DNA from: Candidatus Omnitrophota bacterium
GTDB lineage: Bacteria; Omnitrophota; Gorgyraeia; Aquiviventales; Aquiviventaceae
Length of the DNA stretch: 64,000 nucleotides
NCBI GenBank assembly: GCA_023247255.1
Contig: JAHFGV010000002.1
Coordinates: forward strand, 33,835-97,834
Direction: 5' to 3'
The first letter of the stretch is position 1. Each line of letters starts with the position of its first letter. Under the pieces are notes generated by a model, which saw nothing but the letters and a program-made list of their open reading frames with translations, was not told the DNA's origin and searched no databases. The position numbers and the translations under genes are program-made. Of the stretch, positions 2,863 through 63,280 are shown piece after piece.

Positions 2863-3078
2863 GACCCGGCCTTTGGCTGTGGACCGATGGTTTCGTTGGG
2901 TCTTTAGCCAAAAGCAAAAGCCCCGGGTTCTCGAGCAAACGGGTGTTTTTCCGCAGCCTGTGAGGTGCTCTTAATGCGAACCTTGCGACGTCCGTCGAAG
3001 TATCTTTGGAATAGCTCGCCTTCGCGGAATCGCAGACGTCACAAACACCCAGCTAAAATTTTAGCAAATTCCGAATCG

Positions 3079-4383: not shown

Positions 4384-4455
4384 GCTGGCGTAGCTCAATG
4401 GCAGAGCAACGGTTTTGTAAACCGTGGGTTGGAGGTTCAATTCCTCTCGCCAGCT
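4384..4455 (+). tRNA. tRNA-Thr (anticodon TGT)
   Basis: Manual cloverleaf: 7-bp acceptor gctggcg/cgccagc, anticodon loop tttgtaa, T-loop ttcaatt, 72 nt, no encoded CCA. Confidence 0.8.
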
Positions 4456-4650
4456 TATTTCTCGTCTTGCGAGAGGAATTGAAGGGAGCGCCGACTCAGT
4501 TTAAGGGCGCTGCGACGGGCAGGAGCAGCGACATTCCTTTGGAGGCGCGGGTGGCCGACCCGGAGCGAGTCGAAGACGAGCGGAGGGCGCCAATTCCTCT
4601 CGCCAGCTTATTTCTCGTCTTGCGAGAGGAATCGAAGGGAGCCGAGCCTT
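4436..4650 (+). repeat. tRNA-Thr 3'-end duplication module (52-nt direct repeats at 4436-4492 and 4591-4650 flanking a conserved 45-nt motif at 4546-4590)
   Basis: aattcctctcgccagcttatttctcgtcttgcgagaggaat[t/c]gaagggagc occurs twice. The second copy sits 155 nt downstream of the real tRNA 3' end. Confidence 0.7.
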
Positions 4651-4674: not shown

Positions 4675-4752
4675 ATTGTCGATTGCCGATTTTCGATTGA
4701 ACGAAGGTTTTTCAATCGACAATCCAAAATCGACAATCGACAATTCCAAGGC
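4675..4752. repeat. palindromic TCGATTGTCGATT-family element
   Basis: ttgtcgattttcgattgaa ... ttcaatcgacaatccaaaatcgacaa inverted arms. Confidence 0.7.
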
Positions 4753-4915: not shown

Positions 4916-5001
4916 AGGGCAGGTGCCGGAGTGGCCAATCGGATCAGTCTGTAAAACTGACGGGCTTACCGCCCTACCCAGGTTCGAACCCTGGCCTGCC
5001 C
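4916..5001 (+). tRNA. tRNA-Tyr (anticodon GTA), long variable arm
   Basis: Acceptor gggcagg/cctgccc, anticodon stem tcagt/actga with loop ctgtaaa, type-II variable arm, T-loop ttcgaac, 86 nt. Confidence 0.8.
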
Positions 5002-5180
5002 ATCGTTTTCAAGATATGCTTACATTTTGCCACAGGCCGGTATTTGTGAAGGGAACCCGTTTGTTCCTGCAAGAAGGGGAGGGTTCGAAGGCCGAACGCC
5101 CACCGCGTTCGGCATTCCGCGGCTGCCCCGATGACAGCCGCTGCAGGAGCCGAGCCGTCGATCAATCAAAAGAGCTGAAG

Positions 5181-5250
5181 GAATTGTCGATTTTCGATTG
5201 AATGAAGGTCTTTCAATCGACAATCCAAAATCGACAATTCCAACAGCTTG
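5181..5250. repeat. palindromic TCGATTGTCGATT-family element
   Basis: aattgtcgattttcgattgaatgaagg...ttcaatcgacaatccaaaatcgacaattcc. Confidence 0.7.
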
Positions 5251-5285: not shown

Positions 5286-5356
5286 GCGGGTGTAGCACAG
5301 TGGTAGTGCGCTAGCCTTCCAAGCTAGTCACACGGGTTCGATTCCCGTCACCCGCT
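5286..5356 (+). tRNA. tRNA-Gly (anticodon TCC)
   Basis: Acceptor gcgggtg/cacccgc, anticodon loop cttccaa, T-loop ttcgatt, discriminator U, 71 nt. Confidence 0.8.
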
Positions 5357-5612
5357 TTTTTGTCTTGTGACGGGAATCGAAGGGAGCCGCGACACAGATT
5401 AACGTCGATCCGACGAATAGGAGGATCGATATTCCTTAGGAGCGGCGGGTGGCCGACCGAAGCGAGCCGAAGGCGAGCGGAGGCGCCGATTCCCGTCACC
5501 CGCTTTTTTGTCTTGTGACGGGAATCGAAGGGAGCCGAGCCTTCGGTCAATCAAGAGAGCCGAGGGAATTGCCGATTGTCGATTTTCGATTGAATAAAGC
5601 TATAAGAATCGG
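5339..5612 (+). repeat. tRNA-Gly 3'-end duplication module (copies at 5339-5390 and 5488-5540, conserved motif at 5440-5487) followed by a half palindromic element
   Basis: gattcccgtcacccgcttttttgtcttgtgacgggaatcgaagggagcc is duplicated. Between the copies lies ggcgggtggccgaccgaagcgagccgaaggcgagcggaggcgcc, which is homologous to the Thr-module motif. Confidence 0.7.
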
Positions 5613-31014: not shown

Positions 31015-31089
31015 TTCAGGGCTCCACTTGACACAATTAAAATGGCTCAGGCATACTTTATGTAGTTGATATTTAAATATTTACTTACG

Positions 31090-31225
31090 CTTTACATGGT
31101 ACTGGCGAAAGGGCAAATCCACCGTGAGGTGGAGACCCCCGAGAAATTAGCTTCGGGGCCGCGGGTCTGAAATCAGGACAAGACGCGGGCAAAGCTACGG
31201 GTCTCACGAGACTGCCGAGCTGCCG
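31090..31225 (+). ncRNA. candidate c-di-GMP-I (GEMM) riboswitch aptamer
   Basis: GCGAAAGGGCAAATCC plus hairpin CCACC-GTGA-GGTGG (GNRA loop) plus GAC aligns to the Vc2 GEMM 5' half CGCACAGGGCAAACC-AUUCGAAAGAGUGG-GAC. Downstream GACGCGGGCAAAGCTACGGGTC resembles the P3 consensus. Confidence 0.35.
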
Positions 31226-31257
31226 ACCAGAAAAACGGCGCCGATGGAGAATGAGAC

Positions 31258-31287
31258 CGCCGAGCTACCGAACCAGTGGTGAAGGTT
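31258..31287 (+). terminator. intrinsic terminator (possible riboswitch expression platform)
   Basis: ccgaacc-agtggtgaa-ggttcgg 7-bp stem followed by TTTTTTT, 48 nt before the pilX-like ATG. Confidence 0.6.
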
Positions 31288-31335
31288 CGGTTTTTTTATT
31301 TACTATCACCTGTCATTTATCTGAGACCTAACAAG

Positions 31336-31773: not shown

Positions 31774-32328
31774 ATGCATTCTGCGAGCGTTTATTCTAAG
31801 ACAGTTATGCGCTCAAGGCTCAAGGCTCAAGGCTCAAGGCTATTTCCTACAGCCTACAGCCTACAGCCTACAGCCAATAGGGATTTTAAAGCATACCCTT
31901 GTGAATCTCGATGGATTTCATTCGTTTCTCAATATGGCTATACGTTTATGGAGGTTTTAACCACTGTCGTCATTCTCTCGGTTTTAATGATGATGGGCCT
32001 GCCTCAGTATCGCAAGGTGATCGAGCGCGGCTACTGGGACAGCGCCCGCGACGTTCTTTTAGCGATTTACGCAGGTGAGCAAACTTATGTGACGGTGAAT
32101 GGCACGTACAAAGGCGGCTTGGGAACGGCAAGCAGCATGACTGACTGGAGGGCAATCTATGTGGACAAACCGGCCGCTGCAGGGGAGCCTGTGGAATACA
32201 GTGTCACCGCGGCGGGACCTCCACCGACATTCACCGCAACGGCCAAGCGTATCGGTGGATCGTTTGACAGCAAGACAATAACGATCGATCAAGACAAGGC
32301 ATGGGGCGGAACATGGGCCAGGCCATGA
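31774..32328 (+). CDS. type IV pilin-like protein (minor pilin)
   Basis: Prepilin cleavage motif G|YTFMEVL with Glu at +5 and a hydrophobic helix. N-terminal extent uncertain; in-frame ATGs at 31774 and 31807 lie upstream of heptamer arrays. Confidence 0.6.
   Translation: MHSASVYSKTVMRSRLKAQGSRLFPTAYSLQPTANRDFKAYPCESRWISFVSQYGYTFMEVLTTVVILSVLMMMGLPQYRKVIERGYWDSARDVLLAIYAGEQTYVTVNGTYKGGLGTASSMTDWRAIYVDKPAAAGEPVEYSVTAAGPPPTFTATAKRIGGSFDSKTITIDQDKAWGGTWARP
31814..31876. repeat. two adjacent heptanucleotide arrays, (caaggct)x4 and (acagcct)x4
   Basis: 31814-31841 and 31849-31876. The core pentamers aggct/agcct are reverse complements, so the arrays can pair as an imperfect hairpin. Confidence 0.75.
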
Positions 32329-32873
32329 GGGGGTACCCGTGGTGTCTATCGTCGATTTTCGATTTTCGATTGTCGATTGAAAGCCATAGCGTTATCGATC
32401 GACGATCCACAATCCACAATCGACAATTCCATAGAGGTATCCGTGGTTTCACCATGATCGAGGTTCTCATCGCCTCAGTCATTGCTTCCATAGTCATCGG
32501 GGGAACGATGACAGCCTTTGTGACGGCAAGCCGGATGACGCGTCAGCAAAGCGGACCGGCCAATTCCGATGCCGCTTTGTATGTCCAGCAGCTTTTGGAG
32601 GCGATTCGCAATCACGTGGCTGCCGACTCGACATGGTTCAGCACAAGGGTCGGGCCGGTTCCCGCTACGTGGGCGGCTTGGCGAAACGATGATCCCCCAT
32701 TGTCGGCGTCCTGTCCCTCGGCATCTATCGTTTGCCGGACAGATGTGAACAATGGGCGGAAATATTTTATCACCTATGTCGACGACACCTGTGATGATGA
32801 CGGCGATACCAGTGATTGTTACTACGCCGTGACCGTGAGGGTCTGTTGGGATGAGCCGGCCTCGTCATGCTAA
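32301..32873 (+). CDS. type IV pilin-like protein (minor pilin, PilV/FimT-like)
   Basis: G|FTMIEVLIASV class III signal motif (Gly -1, Phe +1, Glu +5). No canonical start near the motif; the ORF reads through palindromic element 32345-32430. Confidence 0.6.
   Translation: MGRNMGQAMRGYPWCLSSIFDFRLSIESHSVIDRRSTIHNRQFHRGIRGFTMIEVLIASVIASIVIGGTMTAFVTASRMTRQQSGPANSDAALYVQQLLEAIRNHVAADSTWFSTRVGPVPATWAAWRNDDPPLSASCPSASIVCRTDVNNGRKYFITYVDDTCDDDGDTSDCYYAVTVRVCWDEPASSC
32345..32430. repeat. palindromic TCGATTGTCGATT-family element inside the pilin leader ORF
   Basis: cgattttcgattttcgattgtcgattgaaagccatagcg...cgacgatccacaatccacaatcgacaattcc. Confidence 0.7.
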
Positions 32874-33606
32874 ACAAGCGTATCCTTTTCGATTGTCGAT
32901 TGTCGATTTTCGATTGAAAGCCATAGCATTGCCAATCGACGATCCACAATCGACGATCGACGATTCCATTGTAGGTATGACTCTGATTGAGGTTATGGTC
33001 TCCCTGACGCTGGCGATGATCGTTCTGCTTGCGGTAACCAGCATCGATGTGACGCGGGTGCGGATTCACGAAGAGCTTCGTGATCGCTCAGGAATTGCAA
33101 CGCCGGAGCATGGGGAGGCTTCCTTGGCTGCTCTCTCTATAGAAAAAGACATCGAGCAGGCCGATCGGATCAATATCATTGCGGATGGCATTCAAGTGCG
33201 GATTCCCGATATGACGATCGCAGGATGTACGGGGACTGTTCCTGATGCCAGTTGCTTTGATGCTGCGGCCAACTACCGCTGGGACCAATACCGGCTTGAC
33301 GCTGACCAGCTGCTTTATTACCGCGGCACCCAAGTGGCCTGCCCCACTCCCACAGTGCTGGCTGAACAGATTGCGGATTTATCGTTTCAGTACGTGAATG
33401 AAGCCCCCGCTCCTCCTGGAGGCGATCCGGCAAACCAAGACAACAACCTGCTTGCCTACACGGTGAAATGGGATAACGCAGATGGGCTAAGCCATGAATT
33501 TCAGGGGGTGGTCAGTCTCAGAGCCTCTGCCTACACGGATGTTTCGACAGGGCTTCAGGCTCCCAATGGAACAGACATCAGTCCACCGCCTACGGTATGT
33601 TCGTAG
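32851..33606 (+). CDS. type IV pilin-like protein (minor pilin, PilW-like size)
   Basis: G|MTLIEVMVSLTLAMIVLL motif. The ORF reads through palindromic element 32886-32967. Confidence 0.6.
   Translation: MSRPRHAKQAYPFRLSIVDFRLKAIALPIDDPQSTIDDSIVGMTLIEVMVSLTLAMIVLLAVTSIDVTRVRIHEELRDRSGIATPEHGEASLAALSIEKDIEQADRINIIADGIQVRIPDMTIAGCTGTVPDASCFDAAANYRWDQYRLDADQLLYYRGTQVACPTPTVLAEQIADLSFQYVNEAPAPPGGDPANQDNNLLAYTVKWDNADGLSHEFQGVVSLRASAYTDVSTGLQAPNGTDISPPPTVCS
32886..32967. repeat. palindromic TCGATTGTCGATT-family element
   Basis: cgattgtcgattgtcgattttcgattgaaagccatagc...caatcgacgatccacaatcgacgatcgacgattcc. Confidence 0.7.
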
Positions 33607-33998
33607 AAAAGTTAGGAACTCGTGATTAGTGGCTAAAGAGAAAAGTAGCTAAGTGGGGATTCAAGAAGAAGAGGTGAGCGATGAACGGATTTCCGCAAGG
33701 CGAAGATTTATCGTTTGGCGAAGAAGGCAAACATCTCTTGGATGAGGTTGGCTCTGACACGTTCGATCTTAGCTTCAACCTGGGTGAGCCGTTTCTCAAA
33801 CTCCTTTTTTCTTCCACGCGAAGAGGATAATGCTCAGCACCAAGCAGCCGATGCCGAGCGCGACAAAGCCATCCTGCACTATTGGGAGATGATAAGGTTC
33901 TGACGAGGGAAATCGAGATGGACACTGACGTGTTTGAGGAAATTCAGTCCCAAGAGACCGCGCACTGGACTTTGGGATGGGAGATCGTGAGCGACGAT

Positions 33999-34319
33999 CT
34001 ACAAGTGGGGGATTCGGATGCCGAGCGCTTGCACGCTCCGGAGCGTCACGATGGGTTTGAACTCTACACTTCCCGCAGCGATGAACTCTACCCGCGCTTT
34101 CGATGCAGCCGGATCGTAGCCGATAGCTCGCAGGGTGTGAATGGGTGCCATCGTGTAGGTGGCACCTGTATCCAGAGCCATGCGGACAAACTGACGGCCA
34201 TTGGGTCCTTCAAGAAGGACATCCACAGGAATGATTGGCTTGGCAGGATCCAGTGGGAAGGAAGAAGGGCTAGAAGGCAGCGGCATATCCCTGCGGGAGG
34301 GTGTCGCTTCCATAGACAA
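33999..34319 (-). CDS. retropepsin-like (clan AA) aspartic protease domain protein
   Basis: FVRMALDTGATYTMAP contains the D-T/S-G-A active-site motif preceded by a hydrophobic beta-strand; 106 aa. Confidence 0.5.
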   Translation of the reverse strand: MSMEATPSRRDMPLPSSPSSFPLDPAKPIIPVDVLLEGPNGRQFVRMALDTGATYTMAPIHTLRAIGYDPAASKARVEFIAAGSVEFKPIVTLRSVQALGIRIPHL

Positions 34320-34524
34320 GATAAATCAAACCCTTCCGATGAGTCACTTCTTGCTCAAGTGTATCCCGCAGCTTGGAGTGGGCGAGAAGCCGCCCGGTCA
34401 GAGGCGTGGTGGTTTGGGGATCAAACTGATCCACTTGAACGAGTAGCCACTCATCAGAGAATCTGCGACGTAACTTTTGGATGGGTTGACTCTGTTGACG
34501 TTTCATTAAAAATCTGCGCCGCAT
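34270..34524 (-). CDS. hypothetical small protein overlapping the protease gene by 50 nt (+1 frame)
   Basis: ORF only. Its 5' end overlaps the duplicated upstream block of fibre gene 1. No recognisable motif. Confidence 0.2.
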   Translation of the reverse strand: MRRRFLMKRQQSQPIQKLRRRFSDEWLLVQVDQFDPQTTTPLTGRLLAHSKLRDTLEQEVTHRKGLIYLVYGSDTLPQGYAAAF

Positions 34525-34525
34525 A

Positions 34526-34543
34526 CCCCGCCCATGGGTGGGG
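34526..34543. promoter_or_regulatory. near-perfect 18-bp palindrome ccccgcccatgggtgggg upstream of fibre gene 1 (candidate operator)
   Basis: Sits 48 nt before the ATG. A perfect copy ccccgcccatgggcgggg lies at 36623-36640 upstream of fibre gene 2. Confidence 0.45.
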
Positions 34544-34590
34544 AGGAGGCGCAGCCTTTTGATGCCAGCAGTATAACACGAGGTGAGGTT

Positions 34591-36198
34591 ATGTTCAATA
34601 CAGGTGTAAGCTTTCCCCGTCGGCGAGCAACCCGCACTGGTTTGCGAGTCACAAGCGACGAGCGACGAGCAACGATACGTGGGGTTTTTGTAACCATTCT
34701 ATATTTCTGTGGTGTGTTCCTCAGCCTTGCGCCTGCGACGGGGGCGGAAGACGTCACGGTGACGACCTACTACCCCTCTCCGCGCGGAGTCTACGATGAG
34801 CTGCGCACAACCGGCGATGTGAGAATTGGGACGACTTCTGCTCCTGCGGCACGGTTGCACGTGGTCCAGACAAACGCACAAAACGCCTTTCGGGTCGATG
34901 ATGCGAATCCAGATACGACCCCATTCGTCATCGATCAGAATGGCAATGTCGGGATCAAGACGGCAAGCCCTCTGGCTGATCTCCATGTACGAGATGACGC
35001 CGATATAGTAAATCTTCGTGTCACATCGGACAATGAGCGAGCCGGAATTTCTTTATTGTCAGACAATACCGGTGAAGTATTAATCTATACCGAAGACGGA
35101 TCAGATGATTTGCGCTTTCAGGTTGGTGGTACAGATCGTATGACTATTGAAAGTGCCGCTGCTGAGACAAGCATTACGGGTGAGCTAGGGATAGGGACGG
35201 CGAATCCAGAGAGTCCCTTACACATTGTCACTCCAGCTGGGTCCGGTATAAATGAAGTACGTCTTGAAGAGACAGGTGGATCTACCCTGAGTCTGAGCGC
35301 TGGAGGTGGAGTGACCAGGATTGCCTCTAGCGATAATCTACAGATAGAAGCTCCAGGAGGAACCACTCGTATGATCGTGTTGGGCACAGGCAATGTTGGT
35401 ATAGGCGCAGGGAACCCATTGTCCCGTCTCAGCGTAGGAGCTGATGGGTTCGCGGCAACGGCTATTTATGGAGAAAGTGGAGGAGCAGGATCGGGTGTGG
35501 CTGGAAAGGGGGGTGGAAGGGGAGTGGAAGGATGGGCGAGCCTAGGAGCGGGAGCTGTTGCGGGCGTAGCTGGTACTACCATCGATCCAGCGACAATTCC
35601 TGGGGGAGAAATTCCGAATGGTGCGGGTGTATTTGGTTATGGACATACCTATGGAATCCGGGCCGTAGCGACGGACGCCGGGGGCACAGGGGTTTATGGA
35701 AAAGGGCCGGCTTGGGCAGGGGATTTTATAGGCGATGTGCGTGTATCCGATGACCTCTTTGTTGGTAATGATGTAGATGTTCAGGGGGATATTTCGGTAA
35801 CGGGGAACATCACAGGCGATGTTTCAGAACATGTGGATTGTTCAGGGTGTGAAGCGACCGATGTGGTGGTGATCGATCCTGACCACGACCAGCGCCTGCG
35901 CCCATCCAGCAAGGCCTATGACTCGACGGTGGCCGGCGTGATTTCAGAGAAACCGTCTCTAAAGATCGGCGGCAGCCAATCCGAGATCGCCAAGCCCTTG
36001 GCGCTTGCCGGGCTGGTTCGTGTGAAAGCGACGACGGAAAACGGGCCGATTCATCGGGGGGATCTACTCGTGACTTCATCAAAGCCTGGGCATGCCATGC
36101 GGGCCGATCCTGATGCGATCAAACCAGGGATGCTGCTGGGCAAGGCGCTGGAGCCTCTTTCCGAAGGCGATGGGGCGATAGTGATCTTGGTGGAATGA
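34591..36198 (+). CDS. secreted fibre-like repeat protein, paralog 1 (tail-fibre-like NGNVGIGT repeats, Gly-rich core, conserved C-terminal module)
   Basis: Strong RBS gaggtgagg. Signal-anchor VFVTILYFCGVFLSLAPATGA. Repeats of the type L.VV.....AFRVDD..PDTTPFVIDQNGNVGI. C-terminal 115 aa are ~85% identical to paralog 2. Confidence 0.75.
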   Translation: MFNTGVSFPRRRATRTGLRVTSDERRATIRGVFVTILYFCGVFLSLAPATGAEDVTVTTYYPSPRGVYDELRTTGDVRIGTTSAPAARLHVVQTNAQNAFRVDDANPDTTPFVIDQNGNVGIKTASPLADLHVRDDADIVNLRVTSDNERAGISLLSDNTGEVLIYTEDGSDDLRFQVGGTDRMTIESAAAETSITGELGIGTANPESPLHIVTPAGSGINEVRLEETGGSTLSLSAGGGVTRIASSDNLQIEAPGGTTRMIVLGTGNVGIGAGNPLSRLSVGADGFAATAIYGESGGAGSGVAGKGGGRGVEGWASLGAGAVAGVAGTTIDPATIPGGEIPNGAGVFGYGHTYGIRAVATDAGGTGVYGKGPAWAGDFIGDVRVSDDLFVGNDVDVQGDISVTGNITGDVSEHVDCSGCEATDVVVIDPDHDQRLRPSSKAYDSTVAGVISEKPSLKIGGSQSEIAKPLALAGLVRVKATTENGPIHRGDLLVTSSKPGHAMRADPDAIKPGMLLGKALEPLSEGDGAIVILVE

Positions 36199-36256
36199 TG
36201 CCCAGAACTAAGACCGTAGCACAGAAAGCCCAGGGATGTTTGCGAAGTCGATCCGA

Positions 36257-36604
36257 TCATAAGGTTAAGAGGGCTGCTCCTGATTCAATGGCGGTGGCGG
36301 CAATAAGGGCATCCGGGATCTTGCGGCGTTGTCGGCTATACCGTGAGACAAACAGCTCTGCGGCACGATCGATAATCGGTTGGGAGAGTCCAATGGGTTT
36401 TAGGGCTTCCAACAAGGTGTGCGCTCGCTGATGGTGGGCTACTTCTGGGGTGGCAAGCAGTTCGAAACGCGTGATCAGGCTGTAACCGATTACTGTACTT
36501 GCGTCCATCGATTCCAACAGCTGCTTCGCCTCTTGGCCCCTCGGGGTTGCTTCCAACAGGTCGATCAGCACATTGGTATCGAGGACGATGAGATTCGCTA
36601 CCAC
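36257..36604 (-). CDS. PIN-domain (VapC-like) ribonuclease, solitary
   Basis: LIVLDTNVLIDLLE N-terminal PIN motif with conserved Asp residues; GTG start at 36604. The alternative ATG at 36676 overlaps the fibre gene 2 upstream block. No upstream antitoxin ORF is possible on this strand. Confidence 0.65.
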   Translation of the reverse strand: MVANLIVLDTNVLIDLLEATPRGQEAKQLLESMDASTVIGYSLITRFELLATPEVAHHQRAHTLLEALKPIGLSQPIIDRAAELFVSRYSRQRRKIPDALIAATAIESGAALLTL

Positions 36605-36622
36605 AAAAATCTGCGCCGCATA

Positions 36623-36640
36623 CCCCGCCCATGGGCGGGG
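36623..36640. promoter_or_regulatory. perfect 18-bp palindrome ccccgcccatgggcgggg upstream of fibre gene 2
   Basis: Sits 48 nt before the ATG at 36688, inside the duplicated ~340-bp block 36606-36950 (copy of 34508-34850). Confidence 0.45.
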
Positions 36641-36687
36641 AGGAGGCGCAGCCTTTTGATGCCAGCAGTATAACACGAGGTGAGGTT

Positions 36688-38367
36688 ATGTTCAATACAG
36701 GTGTAACAGGTGTAAGCTTTCCCCATCGGCGAGCAACCCGCACTGGTTTGCGAGTCACAAGCGACGAGCGACGAGCGACGATACGTCGGGTTTTTGTAAC
36801 CATTCTATATTATTTCTGTGGTGTGTTCCTCAGCCTTGTGCCTGCGATGGGGGCGGAAGACGTCACGGTGACGACCTACTACCCCTCCCCGCGCGGAGTC
36901 TACGATGAGCTGCGCACAACCGGCGATGTGGGGGTGGGGGTAACCGGTCCGGTACTCGGCAAGCTGCACGTGGTGCAGACTGCTATCGCTCCTGCCTTCC
37001 GTGTGGAGGATGAGGCTACTGCAACTGAGGTGACGCCTTTTTTGATTGATTTTGATGGAAATGTAGGTGCGGGTACCGGGGCCCCTGGGGCTAAGCTCCA
37101 CGTTGTGCAAGATAACGCTGCGAATGCATTTCGCGTGGATGATGAGGTTCCTCCGGATACCACGCCATTTCTGATTGACCAGAATGGCAGCGTAGGCATT
37201 CAAACAATACCTACAACCACATTGGAGATTGTCGATAACGATGCCAGTGGTGACTCGGTTGTAAAGATCGTCAGCGATGATACAGTCTCTGCCTTTCTTC
37301 AGTTTGTGTATGATGACGCGGTTGATCGGGACTGGAGGTTCTACATCAATGTGGATGGGAAATTGTACGTAGCAGATCAAACAGACGGCCTTAACGTGAT
37401 GATCTTTAATAATAATGGACGCGTGGGAATTGGAACAGATACCCCAGCAGCTGGTTTGGAGGTACAGCCATTTGTAGGGGTCACTGGTGTTAAGGGTGAG
37501 GGGGATGGGGCTGTGGGTGTGCATGGTGTGAGTAATAACAATGTAGGTGTTTTAGGTCAAAGTGCTACTGGTACTGGTATTGGGGTTTCTGGATCCTGCC
37601 CAGGCTGTCTTGGAGTCAAAGGGCAAGGTGCAACTGGTGTGGTTGGGGAGAGCACCAATGTGGGTGGTTTTGGCGTTTCCGGGCAGGTAGCCGATGGAAT
37701 TGGTGTTCAAGGTATCGTGACAGATGGAACTGGTGTTGTAGGTACCTCTACAAATGGTGTAGGAGTTATGGCTACAGGTGGGATTGGGTTTGGAGATGCG
37801 GGATTGATTGCTGAAGGAACAGACGGTGTTATAGCGACAGCAAAAGCAGTCGGAGGAGCTGGTATTCATGCGCTTGATGATGGTGATCCGGCCAGATTAG
37901 CTGGACGCTTTGATGGAGAAGTGGAAGTCAATGGATTGCTTGATGTGAATGGAAATATCGAAGTCAGTGGTAGTATTACCGGAGGAGACGTTGCAGAGTT
38001 TATGGACTGCGTTGGGTGTAAGCCAACCGATGTGGTCGTCATCGATACAGAGCACAATCGGTACGTAAAGCCATCCAGCCGGCCCTATGATTCGACTGTT
38101 GCTGGTGTCGTCTCAGAGAAACCTTCGCTTAAGATCGGAGGCAGTGACTCGGAAATCGCAAAGCCCTTGGCTCTGGCTGGCCTTGTGCGTGTAAAAGCGA
38201 CGACGGAAAACGGGCCTATCAAGCGGGGGGATCTGCTCGTAACTTCATCAAAGCCAGGCCATGCGATGCGGGCGGATCCGGAGCGGATCAAGCCTGGGAT
38301 GCTTTTGGGAAAAGCGCTGGAGCCACTTGAGGAAGGTGATGGAACGATTCTACTCCTTGTCGAGTAA
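36688..38367 (+). CDS. secreted fibre-like repeat protein, paralog 2
   Basis: First ~85 aa and last ~115 aa are near-identical to paralog 1. Divergent Gly/Val/Thr-rich core (GVxGxSTNGVGV repeats). Shares the CxGC plus DVVVID...YDSTVAGV...GDLLVTSSKPGHAMRA C-terminal module. Confidence 0.75.
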   Translation: MFNTGVTGVSFPHRRATRTGLRVTSDERRATIRRVFVTILYYFCGVFLSLVPAMGAEDVTVTTYYPSPRGVYDELRTTGDVGVGVTGPVLGKLHVVQTAIAPAFRVEDEATATEVTPFLIDFDGNVGAGTGAPGAKLHVVQDNAANAFRVDDEVPPDTTPFLIDQNGSVGIQTIPTTTLEIVDNDASGDSVVKIVSDDTVSAFLQFVYDDAVDRDWRFYINVDGKLYVADQTDGLNVMIFNNNGRVGIGTDTPAAGLEVQPFVGVTGVKGEGDGAVGVHGVSNNNVGVLGQSATGTGIGVSGSCPGCLGVKGQGATGVVGESTNVGGFGVSGQVADGIGVQGIVTDGTGVVGTSTNGVGVMATGGIGFGDAGLIAEGTDGVIATAKAVGGAGIHALDDGDPARLAGRFDGEVEVNGLLDVNGNIEVSGSITGGDVAEFMDCVGCKPTDVVVIDTEHNRYVKPSSRPYDSTVAGVVSEKPSLKIGGSDSEIAKPLALAGLVRVKATTENGPIKRGDLLVTSSKPGHAMRADPERIKPGMLLGKALEPLEEGDGTILLLVE

Positions 38368-38469
38368 TGGCTTAAGGGGCAGGGGGTGTGGGATAGGGGA
38401 CGTGAGAGAAGCAACCAGAGTGAGTGGTTGTCGGTTCACTCTATTAAGAAACGGCGAGGAGAGCCTGAG

Positions 38470-39939
38470 ATGCCGATAGCCGAGAGATTTCGGACAGCCG
38501 GCATAAAACGATCCATTCGAGTAGGGCTCGTGGCTGCTGGTCTGGGGCTGATGATGGGCTTGGCCCTACCACAGATGGCATGGGCGGCTGTGGGAGATGC
38601 CTGTTCTGCGGTGCTTCCTTGTCCAGAATGTCAGACCTGTAGCGCTGCGGTTTGTATCGCAAGTACTGGATCTTTGTGCGCCGGGACCACCGATTGCAAC
38701 GATCTAGACTCCGACTGTAGGAACTATAGCGGTTCGGCCACAAACCGATGCGATGCCGCTGGAACGTGTCAGCCTTACTATGCAGGTTGTACGACTTACA
38801 CGGATGCTCCTTCAGGTACTTTATGTCCTGGCACTACGGATTGTGACTCACTTGACGTCACCTGTCGTAATTACAACGACGTGAGCAATGTCTGCAATGG
38901 ATCGGGCGGTTGCGGAAGCGGCAGTTGCACTAGCTACACGAATAATGATGGGATTCACTGTAACACCAGAAGCTGCGGCTTTTCAAAAGGCGATCATTAT
39001 TATCAGACAGGGGTGAATGGGGCGCTAGTCACAGAGACTGATGTCTGTAACCTGCATGACGTCGAAGACCGACTCAGTTACTGTAGCGGGGGAAGCTGTC
39101 CCAGCCCACCCGCTTGCGATCCGGCTAGTTATACTGATCAGCTTAACTTGTATTCTTGTGGGGCCTGTAAATACATCAAAGATGCTGTCGATTGTATAGG
39201 CTCGACTTATGGATCATGCACCAACTCTCCCAATCATTCGGTGTGTGATAGCAGTTGTACCATTGCAACTGACGCGACGACGGCAACAAAATGTGTGAGT
39301 ACCGGTCCGCCACCGACAAACAGTGGTTGTAGGCTTAAGTGCGACAATGGCAATCCAAAAGAATGCGATACCTCCGGAAACTGCCAAGCATCCTGCCCCC
39401 GTACCAGTAGCGTGAACTTCGATACAGACGCGGACGGCTGGCAGCCGGCTCCCTGCGGGGATTGTAACAATGACAACCTCGTGATACATCCCGGAGTGTC
39501 GAATCGGTTCTGCGATTGCGACTCCTTAACCGGCTATAGCGCTTTGTTTGAGAACGCGTCTACCAACCCAACCGATCCTTGGGCAGGATACCCGGAGACG
39601 ACGAATTGTATAACGGGATCTGATTTTGAATTTAGCTCAACTTGTTTCTGTAACAACGGCAGGGATGATGATTGCGATGGGGCCATCGATGATGCAGACA
39701 GCGATTGCCCCAGCGCAGCGAATGACCTCATCATTGATCCTGGAGCCGGAAACACGGTGACACTGAGTCACGATGCTGCTTTCTGTGGGTTGCATGTTCT
39801 CAGTGGGACGTTACGGATTCTTTCAGGTGTGACATTGACGCTCGATGATGATGATGGGCTACATTCGCATTCTACGGCAGGTGCGGTGGACCTACAAAGT
39901 AACACTGCTGTGATTGATCTTATCGAACGCTGTCCATAG
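38470..39939 (+). CDS. secreted cysteine-rich protein (CxGTTDCxxLDxxCRNY repeats, C-terminal MopE-like Asp/Cys metal-binding motif)
   Basis: SD ggcgaggagag. Signal peptide ...LALPQMAWAAVGD. About 60 Cys. Motif CAGTTDCNDLDSDCRNY occurs twice. CNNGRDDDCDGAIDDADSDCPS near the C-terminus. Confidence 0.7.
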   Translation: MPIAERFRTAGIKRSIRVGLVAAGLGLMMGLALPQMAWAAVGDACSAVLPCPECQTCSAAVCIASTGSLCAGTTDCNDLDSDCRNYSGSATNRCDAAGTCQPYYAGCTTYTDAPSGTLCPGTTDCDSLDVTCRNYNDVSNVCNGSGGCGSGSCTSYTNNDGIHCNTRSCGFSKGDHYYQTGVNGALVTETDVCNLHDVEDRLSYCSGGSCPSPPACDPASYTDQLNLYSCGACKYIKDAVDCIGSTYGSCTNSPNHSVCDSSCTIATDATTATKCVSTGPPPTNSGCRLKCDNGNPKECDTSGNCQASCPRTSSVNFDTDADGWQPAPCGDCNNDNLVIHPGVSNRFCDCDSLTGYSALFENASTNPTDPWAGYPETTNCITGSDFEFSSTCFCNNGRDDDCDGAIDDADSDCPSAANDLIIDPGAGNTVTLSHDAAFCGLHVLSGTLRILSGVTLTLDDDDGLHSHSTAGAVDLQSNTAVIDLIERCP

Positions 39940-48217: not shown

Positions 48218-48305
48218 ATTTTCGATTGTCGATTTGCGATTGTCGATTGGAAAAAAGTTTTTGGCTGTGAATCGAGAATCCGGAATTGGCAATCGACGAT
48301 TCATC
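48218..48305. repeat. palindromic TCGATTGTCGATT-family element
   Basis: aattttcgattgtcgatttgcgattgtcgattgg...aatcgagaatccggaattggcaatcgacgattc. Confidence 0.65.
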
Positions 48306-51470: not shown

Positions 51471-51512
51471 CGGCTGTTCAATCGAAAATCGACAATCATC
51501 AATCGACAATTC
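51471..51512. repeat. half copy of palindromic TCGATTG-family element (right arm only)
   Basis: gacggctgttcaatcgaaaatcgacaatcatcaatcgacaattcc. Confidence 0.5.
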
Positions 51513-51616
51513 CATGGGGGAGACATCCCGCCCACCCGATCGTTGAAGCAAACCAACTGGGCCCATGCCTTCGGCTGTGGGCCCGATGGCGGGGAGGAGT
51601 CCCACAAGATGAGTTT

Positions 51617-51746
51617 GTGGCACTGATAACCTCTCCCCTCTCAAGGAATCATGAAACTGCCTTGGAATTTTCGATTGTCGATTTTGGATTTTCGATTGGA
51701 AGACGGCTGTTCAAACGAAAATCGACAATCGTCAATCGACAATTCC
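51617..51746. repeat. composite repeat: ~45-bp block plus palindromic TCGATTG-family element (near-duplicate of 58517-58646)
   Basis: gtggcactgataacctctcccctctcaaggaatcatgaaactgcc followed by ttttcgattgtcgattttggattttcgattggaagacggctgttcaaacgaaaatcgacaatcgtcaatcgacaattcc. Confidence 0.65.
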
Positions 51747-51889
51747 ACGGAATGAGTTTGTGGCATTCAAGAACACGCTCCGCGTGGGTCGACATCCCGC
51801 CCACCCATTGGCTGTTCTGCCGTGTCACCTACGGCTTTCGGCGTGGCGCAATGGCGGGGTCGAAATTAATTCGCGGAGGCAAAATTCTT

Positions 51890-51962: not shown

Positions 51963-52318
51963 TTTCTAAACGTCTTGGGGATCGAAGGGAGCCGAGCCTT
52001 CTTTCCTCAACGTCGCCGCGACTTATGGGAGCGGCGACAATCCACTTGGCGAGGCGAGTGCCCGACCGGAGCCCGAACGAAGTGAGGGCGAAGGCGGCGA
52101 TCCCCCTCTGCTCCATTTCTAGACGTCTTGGGGATCGAAGGTCAAGCGCCCGTCGCGCTCGACATTCCGCGGCTGCCACGATGGCAGCCGCTTCAGGAGC
52201 ACCGAGCCTTCGACCAATGAAGAGAGCCGAAGGAATTGTCGATTGATGATTGTCGATTTTCGATTGAACGAAGGTTTTTTAATCGACAATCCAAAATCGA
52301 CAATCGAAAATTCAAAAA
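51950..52318 (+). repeat. tRNA-Ala 3'-end duplication module (copies at 51950-51995 and 52097-52145; motif cccgaccggagcccgaacgaagtgagggcgaaggcggc) followed by palindromic element 52233-52312
   Basis: gatccccctctgctccatttcta.acgtcttggggatcgaagg is duplicated. Same architecture as the Thr and Gly modules at 4436-5612. Confidence 0.7.
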
Positions 52319-58516: not shown

Positions 58517-58646
58517 GTGGCACTAGTAACTTCTCCCTTGCCAAGGCATCATGAAACTACCTTTGAATTTCCGATTTTCGATTTTGGATTGTCGATTGAA
58601 AGACCTCTGTTTAATCGAAAATCGACAATCGTCAATCGACAATTCC
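58517..58646. repeat. composite repeat (duplicate of 51617-51746)
   Basis: gtggcactagtaacttctcccttgccaaggcatcatgaaactacc plus a palindromic TCGATTG-family element. Confidence 0.65.
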
Positions 58647-63221: not shown

Positions 63222-63280
63222 TTCGAATTTTCGATTGTGGATTGTCGATTGTGGATTGTCCGTTCGATCAATCCGCATTC
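63222..63280. repeat. palindromic TCGATTG-family element (TGGATTG variant)
   Basis: ttcgaattttcgattgtggattgtcgattgtggattgtccgttcgatcaatccgcattcc. Confidence 0.6.

Follow-up and report, generated by a model that had tools for sequence, protein, structure and literature searches.

The locus examined here lies in a 64,000-nt stretch of a Candidatus Omnitrophota genome (assembly GCA_023247255.1, contig JAHFGV010000002.1), hereafter called the window. Two tandem genes encoding putative fibre proteins follow pseudopilin genes in a type IV pilus (T4P)-like operon, and each is preceded by a near-identical block that carries an 18-mer palindrome and continues into the coding region. An earlier note on this DNA had regarded the block as a duplicated promoter region with a conserved operator, through which one dimeric regulator would co-regulate both paralogs, and as a target of ongoing gene conversion. 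In our analysis, the observation itself was confirmed, the gene conversion and the label of fibre genes were supported, and the promoter and the operator were not. The features concerned are as follows.

34508..34821, plus strand: block copy 1, consisting of an A-tract, a hairpin, a leader with a Shine-Dalgarno sequence, and codons 1–77 of fibre paralog 1 (N-terminal extension, signal peptide, and the beginning of the conserved mature N-terminal motif)
36605..36930, plus strand: block copy 2, with the same content plus a 9-bp tandem duplication and a 3-bp indel
34526..34543, no strand assigned: 18-mer palindrome, copy 1, CCCCGCCCATGGGTGGGG, with one mismatch to dyad symmetry
36623..36640, no strand assigned: 18-mer palindrome, copy 2, CCCCGCCCATGGGCGGGG, perfect
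34514..34554, no strand assigned: two-tier hairpin 1, with outer stem CTGCGCC/GGCGCAG, internal loops GCATA/AGGA, apical stem CCCCGCC/GGTGGGG, and loop CATG
36611..36651, no strand assigned: two-tier hairpin 2, with a perfect apical stem (−29.1 kcal/mol on the plus strand and −28.8 kcal/mol on the minus strand)
34591..36198, plus strand: fibre paralog 1 (535 aa), with a long Arg-rich N-extension and signal peptide followed by the motif AEDVTVTTYYPSPRGVYDELRTTGDV, GNVGIG-type repeats in the shaft, and an all-beta domain at the C-terminus
36688..38367, plus strand: fibre paralog 2 (559 aa), with the same N- and C-terminal modules and a divergent shaft

Repeat finding and pairwise alignment delimited the blocks to 34508–34821 and 36605–36930. 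These near-identical copies of ca. 315–326 bp (94.2% identity including gaps, blastn) are each composed of an 83-nt leader and the first 77–81 codons of one paralog. Seven substitutions and two in-frame indels separate them; relative to copy 1, copy 2 has a 9-bp tandem duplication (ACAGGTGTA) and a 3-bp TAT indel, and the non-coding leader differs by one substitution. Both edges are sharp: the match begins at AAAAAT on the left and ends after ...GGC GAT GTG on the right. The near-identity claimed for 34508–34850 and 36606–36950 was thus reproduced, and only the right limits had been set ca. 20–30 nt too far.

The same arrangement was found in two other metagenome assemblies, L001, which covers both blocks with 100% identity to the window, and L002 (99.98% identity). 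The hairpin is identical in these assemblies, and the sole single-nucleotide polymorphisms are at 38599 and 38609; over 11.2 kb, L002 differs from the window only by these reciprocal G/C swaps, 10 nt apart, in a Cys-rich gene downstream of fibre paralog 2. Two of the three contigs with the locus break near the paralogs, which would fit a repeat that the metagenome assembler had collapsed or joined into a chimera. Because L001 and L002 carry the arrangement and the copies differ from each other by substitutions and indels, such an artefact is extremely improbable; in addition, neither reading frame is interrupted, and both have their homologs in a real protein family.

To compare the paralogs at the codon level, we used the proportions of synonymous (pS) and nonsynonymous (pN) differences. 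pS was ca. 0.03–0.08 inside the block and 0.55–0.98 (saturated) immediately outside it, an abrupt step in divergence at which the synonymous sites of the block are homogenised relative to its flanks. The C-terminal domain, which is under strong purifying selection (pN of ca. 0.06), nevertheless showed a pS of 0.46–0.69. Since this constrained domain keeps a high pS, protein constraint cannot account for the identity of the block. These results indicate that the fibre paralogs are old and the block is young, and recent or ongoing gene conversion, for which the earlier note had proposed comparing synonymous divergence inside and outside the shared blocks, is well supported. The right end of the block lies within the most conserved peptide motif of the family, at the end of this motif, which is a natural place for homologous exchange to resolve. 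The left end adjoins unrelated antisense genes, a 78-aa gene whose ATG is 1 nt from block 1 and a PIN-domain gene whose GTG is 0 nt from block 2, and pairwise alignment detected no homology between the two left flanks beyond AAAAAT. Since the two palindromes derive from a single copy event, their identity is not evidence of a site kept by selection.

The shafts of the two fibre proteins share 38% amino acid identity, and neither protein had a match in Pfam or NCBIfam. A profile of the family searched against PDB matched 8OND (Bd2133, a MAT fibre of Bdellovibrio) with E = 1.7e-15, as well as 8OJN, 8OL4, 8OML, and 8ON4, so that the beta-helical shaft is homologous to those of solved fibres. A tail-fibre family of PHROG was also matched (3.4e-8). 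The C-terminal 155 residues were modelled with a predicted local distance difference test (pLDDT) value of 91.6. The best compact superposition of this model was on the C-terminal fragment of phage phi29 gp12 (3GQH: template modelling [TM] score 0.60, root-mean-square deviation [rmsd] 2.7 Å; 3SUC: TM 0.63). The mature N-terminus, AE[DE]xTxTTYYPSPRGVYxELRTTG after a short signal peptide, occurs in 33 of the 120 listed homologs in varied architectures; P0019, which is encoded in the same genomic slot and has a Peptidase_S74 end, carries this motif. With the MAT profile match, the PHROG tail-fibre match, and the gp12-like C-terminal domain, "fibre genes" is a fair label. The paralogs are putatively anciently duplicated tandem genes for secreted adhesins of the trimeric-fibre type within the T4P-like operon.

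The leader and N-extension had no similarity to the compared loci or to the rest of the window. The N-extension (MFNTG...RRATR...RRATIR, 34600–34700) contains a heptamer array, AGCGACG x3 (34654–34674 and 36757–36777), and an internal repeat, and a substitution in copy 2 creates a small stem and a T-run inside the coding region (36776–36788). This lineage-specific extension looks like recruited non-coding DNA. In another Omnitrophota MAG (metagenome-assembled genome; L129:5001–6734), a fibre gene with the same N-terminal motif and a Peptidase_S74 end follows the pseudopilin genes, and a further MAG (L131:2459–6257) has three tandem paralogs (PTL_trimer plus Gly_rich_2) beside a prepilin peptidase gene. 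The slot after the pseudopilin genes holds fibres with interchangeable ends. In L003, a remnant of a fibre gene (2889–2984, plus strand; the last 32 codons, 69–75% identical to the C-termini in the window) lies after the antisense cassette and directly upstream of a Cys-rich gene; it may represent either a second tandem paralog that was mostly deleted or a 3′ end duplicated by cassette insertion. The corresponding gene in the window, 18 nt past fibre paralog 2 (38386–39939, plus strand), encodes a 489–517-aa Cys-rich secreted protein, which had no match in Pfam, PHROGs, or NCBIfam and is conserved in L003 (ca. 40% identity).

The palindromes were confirmed at 34526–34543 and 36623–36640, and the larger inverted repeat around them, CTGCGCC...GGCGCAG, is also real. 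The whole element, in which the palindrome is the apical stem, reads AAAAAT-CTGCGCC-GCATA-CCCCGCC-CATG-GGYGGGG-AGGA-GGCGCAG-CCTTTTGA, and hairpin 1 is flanked by AAAAAT (34508–34513) and CCTTTT (34555–34560). The 41-nt hairpins fold at −27 to −29 kcal/mol on the plus strand and −23 to −29 kcal/mol on the minus strand. Among 25,580 local 50-nt folds covering both strands of the window (mean −10.4, standard deviation 4.2), they rank fourth and sixth; strong hairpins in general are 2.7–4.8-fold enriched in the intergenic DNA of the window. The sole difference between the two hairpins, C to T, gives a G-U pair in plus-strand RNA and a C-A mismatch in minus-strand RNA. The ATGs with a good Shine-Dalgarno sequence (GAGGTGAGG) are at 34591 and 36688, 47 nt past the palindrome. 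The public 554-aa annotation of paralog 1 instead starts at an in-frame ATG at 34534, within the central CCATGG of the palindrome.

When up to three mismatches were allowed, the palindrome matched just these two sites in the 64 kb (0.03 expected from shuffled sequences). Thus, the abundant repeat that would have spoken against the proposal of the earlier note is not seen within the window; its two linked copies compare with the many spread through a genome in the case of repetitive extragenic palindromic (REP) elements or miniature inverted-repeat transposable elements. The composite hairpin had no match in 241 million metagenome records (JGI metagenomes). The 18-mer is likewise rare, with 111 scattered stretches in 596 Gb of GTDB representatives, among which the source genome is not included. 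It occurs in six other Omnitrophota MAGs, each time with a different outer stem that extends the complementarity. In three of the six it is 7–27 nt past a stop codon, as placed by a greedy gene map where the raw open reading frames are ambiguous, and in three a T-run comes next; in L048, 20 nt separate it from the preceding stop codon and 32 nt from the start codon that follows.

To evaluate the operator, we looked for promoter elements on which it could act. Between the left edge of the block and the ATG, neither copy contains a sense-strand −10 element (TANNNT) or a sigma-54 element, and the description of the region as a promoter block was not borne out. The sole plus-strand promoter-like site near the block has its −35 element outside the block and is present in copy 1 only. 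The lineage does use textbook sigma-70 promoters: TTGACA-17-TAGACT upstream of homologs of the antisense cassette, TTGACG-18-CATACT in L005 and L006, and TTGACA-18-CATACT in the window (31028–31057). At the orthologous loci in L003, L005, L006, and L129, the fibre gene starts 13–50 nt past the last pseudopilin gene, and no palindrome or hairpin is found. The palindromic site is apparently private to this lineage.

An operator of one dimeric regulator, acting on promoters inside the blocks to co-regulate both paralogs, would be consistent with the dyad symmetry (perfect in copy 2, with one mismatch in copy 1), with the same position before both ATGs, and with the restriction of the 18-mer to two copies in the 64 kb, where it is thus no abundant repeat. 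However, both sites stem from one copy event, no promoter adjoins them, and the site recurs neither at the four orthologous loci nor at other regulated genes in the 64 kb or the metagenomes, where the composite hairpin is unmatched. The same word also stands after stop codons in unrelated contexts of other genomes. Furthermore, a contiguous palindrome of G and C nested co-linearly in a second inverted repeat points to a folding structure rather than a protein-binding site. The 18-mer is therefore more likely to be part of a folded hairpin than a regulator-binding site, and the proposed operator is improbable; what had looked like conservation is the by-product of recent copying.

The locus is syntenic with other Omnitrophota MAGs in the order UvrA, a TPR protein, ExbB/ExbD, DUF2582, CutA1, pseudopilins, and the fibre gene, followed by an antisense cassette of the toxin-antitoxin type, further genes, PilM/N, PilO, a secretin, and an ATPase. 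The named best matches of UvrA of the window (64–79% identity) were almost exclusively from Candidatus Omnitrophica/Omnitrophota. P0121, a candidate relative with 97% UvrA identity, was rejected as the same organism, its contig ending inside uvrA. The head of the pseudopilin/fibre operon has the following elements.

31028..31057, plus strand: sigma-70 promoter-like site, TTGACA-18-CATACT, 10/12
31104..31228, plus strand: candidate aptamer of the cyclic di-GMP (c-di-GMP)-I type (30.2 bits, E = 3e-4, under the gathering score), with a large insertion in one hairpin
31268..31297, plus strand: canonical intrinsic terminator, CCGAACC...GGTTCGG followed by T7 (T-tail score 5.46), with a modest stem, 46 nt before the ATG of the first gene

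Bona fide aptamers scoring above the gathering score are present in the same cluster of relatives, in L005 (5563–5665, upstream of the pseudopilin genes) and in L006 (10496–10569, a GGC variant located after the antisense cassette). In these Omnitrophota, c-di-GMP riboswitches appear to control the T4P-like cluster. From 31.3 kb to the fibre genes, neither a canonical plus-strand terminator nor a convincing internal promoter was found, and, apart from the two cassettes, every large gene between 31.3 and 48.2 kb is encoded on the plus strand. Because of these elements at the operon head, the lack of an intervening terminator or promoter, and the shared strand, one transcription unit headed by the riboswitch would be the simplest route to co-regulation of the paralogs. 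Co-regulation, as the earlier note had it, is thus plausible, and a dimeric regulator at an operator is not needed for it and was not supported. T4P clusters are near-universal in Omnitrophota and have been read as host-attachment machinery, and a host-dependent or predatory way of life is predicted for the host organism (PMC10066038).

Antisense cassettes lie immediately to the left of both blocks, and a minus-strand promoter-like site is found within each block.

33879..34319, minus strand: retropepsin-like Asp-protease pseudogene, with an in-frame CAG-to-TAG change at 33999–34001 and 39 conserved codons readable beyond it
34270..34506, minus strand: cassette gene of 78 aa that starts with an ATG 1 nt from the block edge, without the promoter and Shine-Dalgarno sequence that its homologs have
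36208..36604, minus strand: orphan PIN (VapC-type) toxin pseudogene, its GTG start abutting block 2, with no antitoxin gene
34570..34598, minus strand: promoter-like site, TTGAAC-17-TGtTATACT, overlapping the ATG of fibre paralog 1 (copy 2 at 36667–36695)

The PIN-domain gene (36257–36604, minus strand) has a frameshift before its ...LLTxDxxDF...IPGL tail, and its original stop codon was 9 nt from the stop codon of fibre paralog 1. Both cassettes are evidently decaying and lack a promoter. Antisense toxin-antitoxin-type cassettes of different families are convergent to the fibre stop codon in L003–L006 (L003:2409–2841, L004:1569–2444, L005:9641–10080, and L006:9670–10338; in the window, 33879–34506 and 36208–36604, minus strand). 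Across five genomes, the cassette types (PIN, PIN-RHH, HicAB, and DUF433/78-aa/Asp-protease) are 4–74 nt from the fibre stop codon. Since different families occupy the same convergent position, it is probably a recurrent insertion hot spot. L005 and L006 have the order fibre stop codon, cassette, hairpin with a T-run, and next gene. This resembles the window, where the stop codon of fibre paralog 1 is followed after 9 nt by the PIN relic, then the hairpin and, 37 nt further, the ATG of fibre paralog 2. In L004, a small palindrome (AAAAAATCTGC-GGCA-GCAGATTTTT) closely precedes the orthologous cassette and has AAAAATCTGCG in common with the block edge. A cassette-associated palindrome as a general feature was rejected, because none occurs at ten further loci of the 78-aa gene, whose promoters and Shine-Dalgarno sequences are ordinary. 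A 15-nt inverted match between the 3′ flanks of the two cassettes was dismissed as chance (ca. 60 such matches expected in 8 kb by our own estimate). A possible small membrane-protein gene with a frameshift at an A-run (33640–33900, minus strand) is located past the last pseudopilin gene, before the Asp-protease relic.

To consider what the hairpin may do, we scored its T-tails: 1.19 in the sense direction (poor) and 2.33–2.46 in the antisense direction (top 2–4% of positions), against 5.46 for the window's own riboswitch terminator, taken as the benchmark of a working one, and 3.3–4.9 for terminators in relatives. The stem-loop itself is as stable and GC-rich as an intrinsic terminator would have it, being in the top six of the 25,580 folds. 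The two hairpins are 412 and 907 nt beyond the nearest plus-strand stop codons, and no gene ends upstream of them on the minus strand; if the PIN relic is counted as an insertion, hairpin 2 is ca. 10–15 nt from a plus-strand stop codon. A search of Rfam gave nothing credible over 33.5–38.5 kb at E<=1, and no known RNA family covers the block. The hairpin is also not placed as a riboswitch expression platform would be, immediately after an aptamer, since the aptamer-like match is 3.3 kb upstream.

Taken together, we give a probability of ca. 50% to the reading that a copy event homogenised the 5′ ends of the paralogs and that the hairpin now acts as a nucleic-acid structure in a read-through operon transcript. 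One copy of the 5′ segment would have replaced the other, by gene conversion or by a copy-paste repair event. The copied segment would comprise the leader, the start codon, the lineage-specific N-extension with the signal peptide, and the first 22 residues of the conserved mature N-terminus. Recombination would have resolved on the right where the conserved N-terminal motif ends, and the hairpin with its palindrome would merely have been carried along. The operon would be transcribed from the riboswitch-controlled promoter at 31.03 kb, reading across the two decayed antisense cassettes. In the sense RNA, the hairpin would then form an intercistronic stem-loop just upstream of each fibre cistron; with its weak U-tail, it may serve as a pause, a processing site, or a stabiliser of 5′ or 3′ ends rather than as an efficient terminator. 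On the antisense strand, where the U-tail is better, it would stop transcription heading into the orphan toxin relics. Both the read-through transcription and any function of the hairpin at the RNA level are what we infer from the sequence.

Several points weigh against this reading. In the sense direction the U-tail falls short of a canonical terminator, and in the antisense direction it is borderline, so that the word "terminator" describes anatomy only. That transcription reads through 0.9 kb and 0.4 kb of antisense cassette is an assumption. The G-U-compatible substitution is one coin-flip observation of little weight, and two recently copied instances provide no evidence of covariation. 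A simple conversion needs two homologous ends and cannot make a junction in non-homologous DNA; since the left edge is non-homologous, at least one illegitimate join must have occurred. Break repair that copied through the hairpin and ended in end-joining is one possibility for this left junction, and a speculative one. Both junctions, moreover, fall at the start codons of two unrelated decayed cassettes, for which this reading does not account. Finally, the hairpin may have no present function.

The last point can be put as an explanation in its own right, namely that the hairpin is a functionless relic duplicated only as part of the converted tract, which could stem from a post-gene terminator, a riboswitch expression platform, or an inserted palindromic repeat. 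The block is young, and its identity is silent on selection; this genome has several other palindromic repeat families in its intergenic DNA, the U-tails are sub-canonical on both strands, and the neighbouring cassettes are decaying. The leader and N-extension, which resemble nothing else and hold a heptamer array, also suggest recruited non-coding DNA. However, a nested 41-nt structure of this stability is unlikely to arise or persist without cause, the 18-mer itself is found again past stop codons elsewhere in Omnitrophota, and the lone substitution keeps the pairing in sense RNA. We regard a hitch-hiking relic as the less likely explanation, to be taken seriously at perhaps half the weight of a structure acting in the transcript. 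Doubtful, and clearly below it, is an origin of the hairpin on the side of the cassettes, either as an attenuator or operator in the 5′ untranslated region of a minus-strand promoter that once drove these toxin-antitoxin-type cassettes or as a mark of a hairpin-adjacent insertion hot spot. This would agree with both cassette start codons lying 0–1 nt after the hairpin-ATTTTT on their own strand, with the TTGAAC-17-TGtTATACT site in both blocks, with the better minus-strand U-tail, and with the L004 palindrome that shares its sequence with the block edge. In contrast, the ten loci of the 78-aa gene have ordinary promoters and no palindrome, the count of promoter-like sites in the region is at chance level, and the cassettes are pseudogenes without an antitoxin or regulator. 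The two cassettes are also unrelated, and one of the two adjacencies is probably a product of the copy event. An integron attC site was likewise rejected, as the R″/R′ core sites (RYYYAAC ... GTTRRRY) are absent from both strands of both blocks.

Other hairpin families were observed in the window. One dispersed family consists of tandem heptamers in inverted arrangement (TCGATTK x3–4 ... MAATCGA x3–4) and has at least 10 sites in the 64 kb. Three of its hairpins (31810–31872, 32351–32432, and 32886–32969) stand just upstream of consecutive pseudopilin genes, the one at 31.8 kb in a GGCTGTA/CCTTGAG version. Further ones are at ca. 4675–4748, 5183–5242, 5568–5594, 48218–48249, 51477–51747, 52239–52313, 58572–58643, and 63225–63259. 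Repeated strong hairpins were found at 5091–5140, 52141–52190, 4436–4485, 5336–5385, and 5481–5530, one of them being a double-hairpin element that is present twice. Another is a hairpin family that overlaps or abuts the 3′ ends of tRNA genes (4384–4455, 4917–5002, and 5286–5356) in a 1.4-kb non-coding stretch.

The finding is real and fairly ordinary, a further instance of concerted evolution at the 5′ ends of paralogs and of an intergenic stem-loop, both of which are known. It provides a clear example in which the 5′ ends of two surface-fibre paralogs evolve in concert and a hairpin is carried along, and it illustrates that identity between recently copied sequences does not speak for conservation of a regulatory site. 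The surroundings are more promising: a MAT-like fibre gene occupies a fixed slot after the minor pilins in T4P clusters across Omnitrophota, with apparent c-di-GMP riboswitch control, interchangeable C-terminal ends, and an adjacent hot spot of antisense toxin-antitoxin cassettes. For Bdellovibrio, it has been asked how adhesive fibres work together with type IV pili when a cell attaches to its prey or host, and the present context bears on this. It is very unlikely, in our judgement, that the 5′ block and the conserved 3′ region of the C-terminal domain serve as recombination flanks for swapping or homogenising divergent shafts between expression slots. If they did, this would amount to a cassette-style variation of host range for an adhesive fibre working with the type IV pilus in host-dependent Omnitrophota, and the hairpin would mark the tract boundary and attract the antisense toxin-antitoxin cassettes.

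Among known systems, the MAT fibres of Bdellovibrio bacteriovorus are the closest to the fibre proteins. MAT fibres are trimeric and adhesive; their signal peptide is directly followed by a conserved domain, their ends are of the S74 or a non-S74 type, and an interplay with type IV pili is possible (PMC10769870). The window proteins are homologous to them in the shaft sequence, resemble them by position in having a conserved module directly after the signal peptide, and have relatives in the same slot that end in Peptidase_S74 or other domains. Unlike MAT fibres, they are about half as long, it is their shaft that varies between conserved N- and C-terminal modules, the C-terminal domain is nearer to the gp12 fragment than to MAT tip domains, and the gene lies within a T4P-like operon. 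The C-terminal fragment of phi29 gp12, which we take to be an autochaperone, superposes on the C-terminal model (3GQH and 3SUC, TM 0.60–0.63, rmsd 2.7–3.4 Å), and two sequence homologs of the fibre proteins carry PF11962; identity, however, is ca. 15%, and Pfam does not call the gp12-type domain in the window proteins.

As for the hairpin, it shares with intrinsic (bidirectional) terminators the anatomy of an A-tract, a GC-rich hairpin, and a T-tract, but differs from them in its T-tails (1.19 and 2.3–2.5) and in having no gene end immediately upstream on either strand. In enterobacterial operons, REP-type elements and operon-internal stem-loops stabilise or attenuate transcripts. Like these, the hairpin is a very stable GC-rich stem-loop between cistrons with no strong sense U-tract, and the position of the 18-mer 7–27 nt after stop codons in other Omnitrophota is a likeness to post-gene stabilising or attenuating hairpins. 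In contrast to REP-type elements, it occurs as two linked copies in 64 kb and not as a dispersed family, and it stands beside antisense cassette relics and not directly after an upstream stop codon.

As for the block, gene conversion or concerted evolution at the 5′ ends of paralogous surface-protein genes is exemplified by the vsp/vlp families of Mycoplasma, with their conserved blocks of 5′ untranslated region and signal peptide, and by opa/pil of Neisseria. The fibre genes differ from these systems in having only two copies and a left edge in non-homologous DNA, with no evidence of phase-variable elements, invertase sites, or silent cassettes. They resemble them in that a leader and signal-peptide segment is shared by otherwise divergent surface-protein paralogs, likewise with a sharp step in divergence and homogenised synonymous sites.

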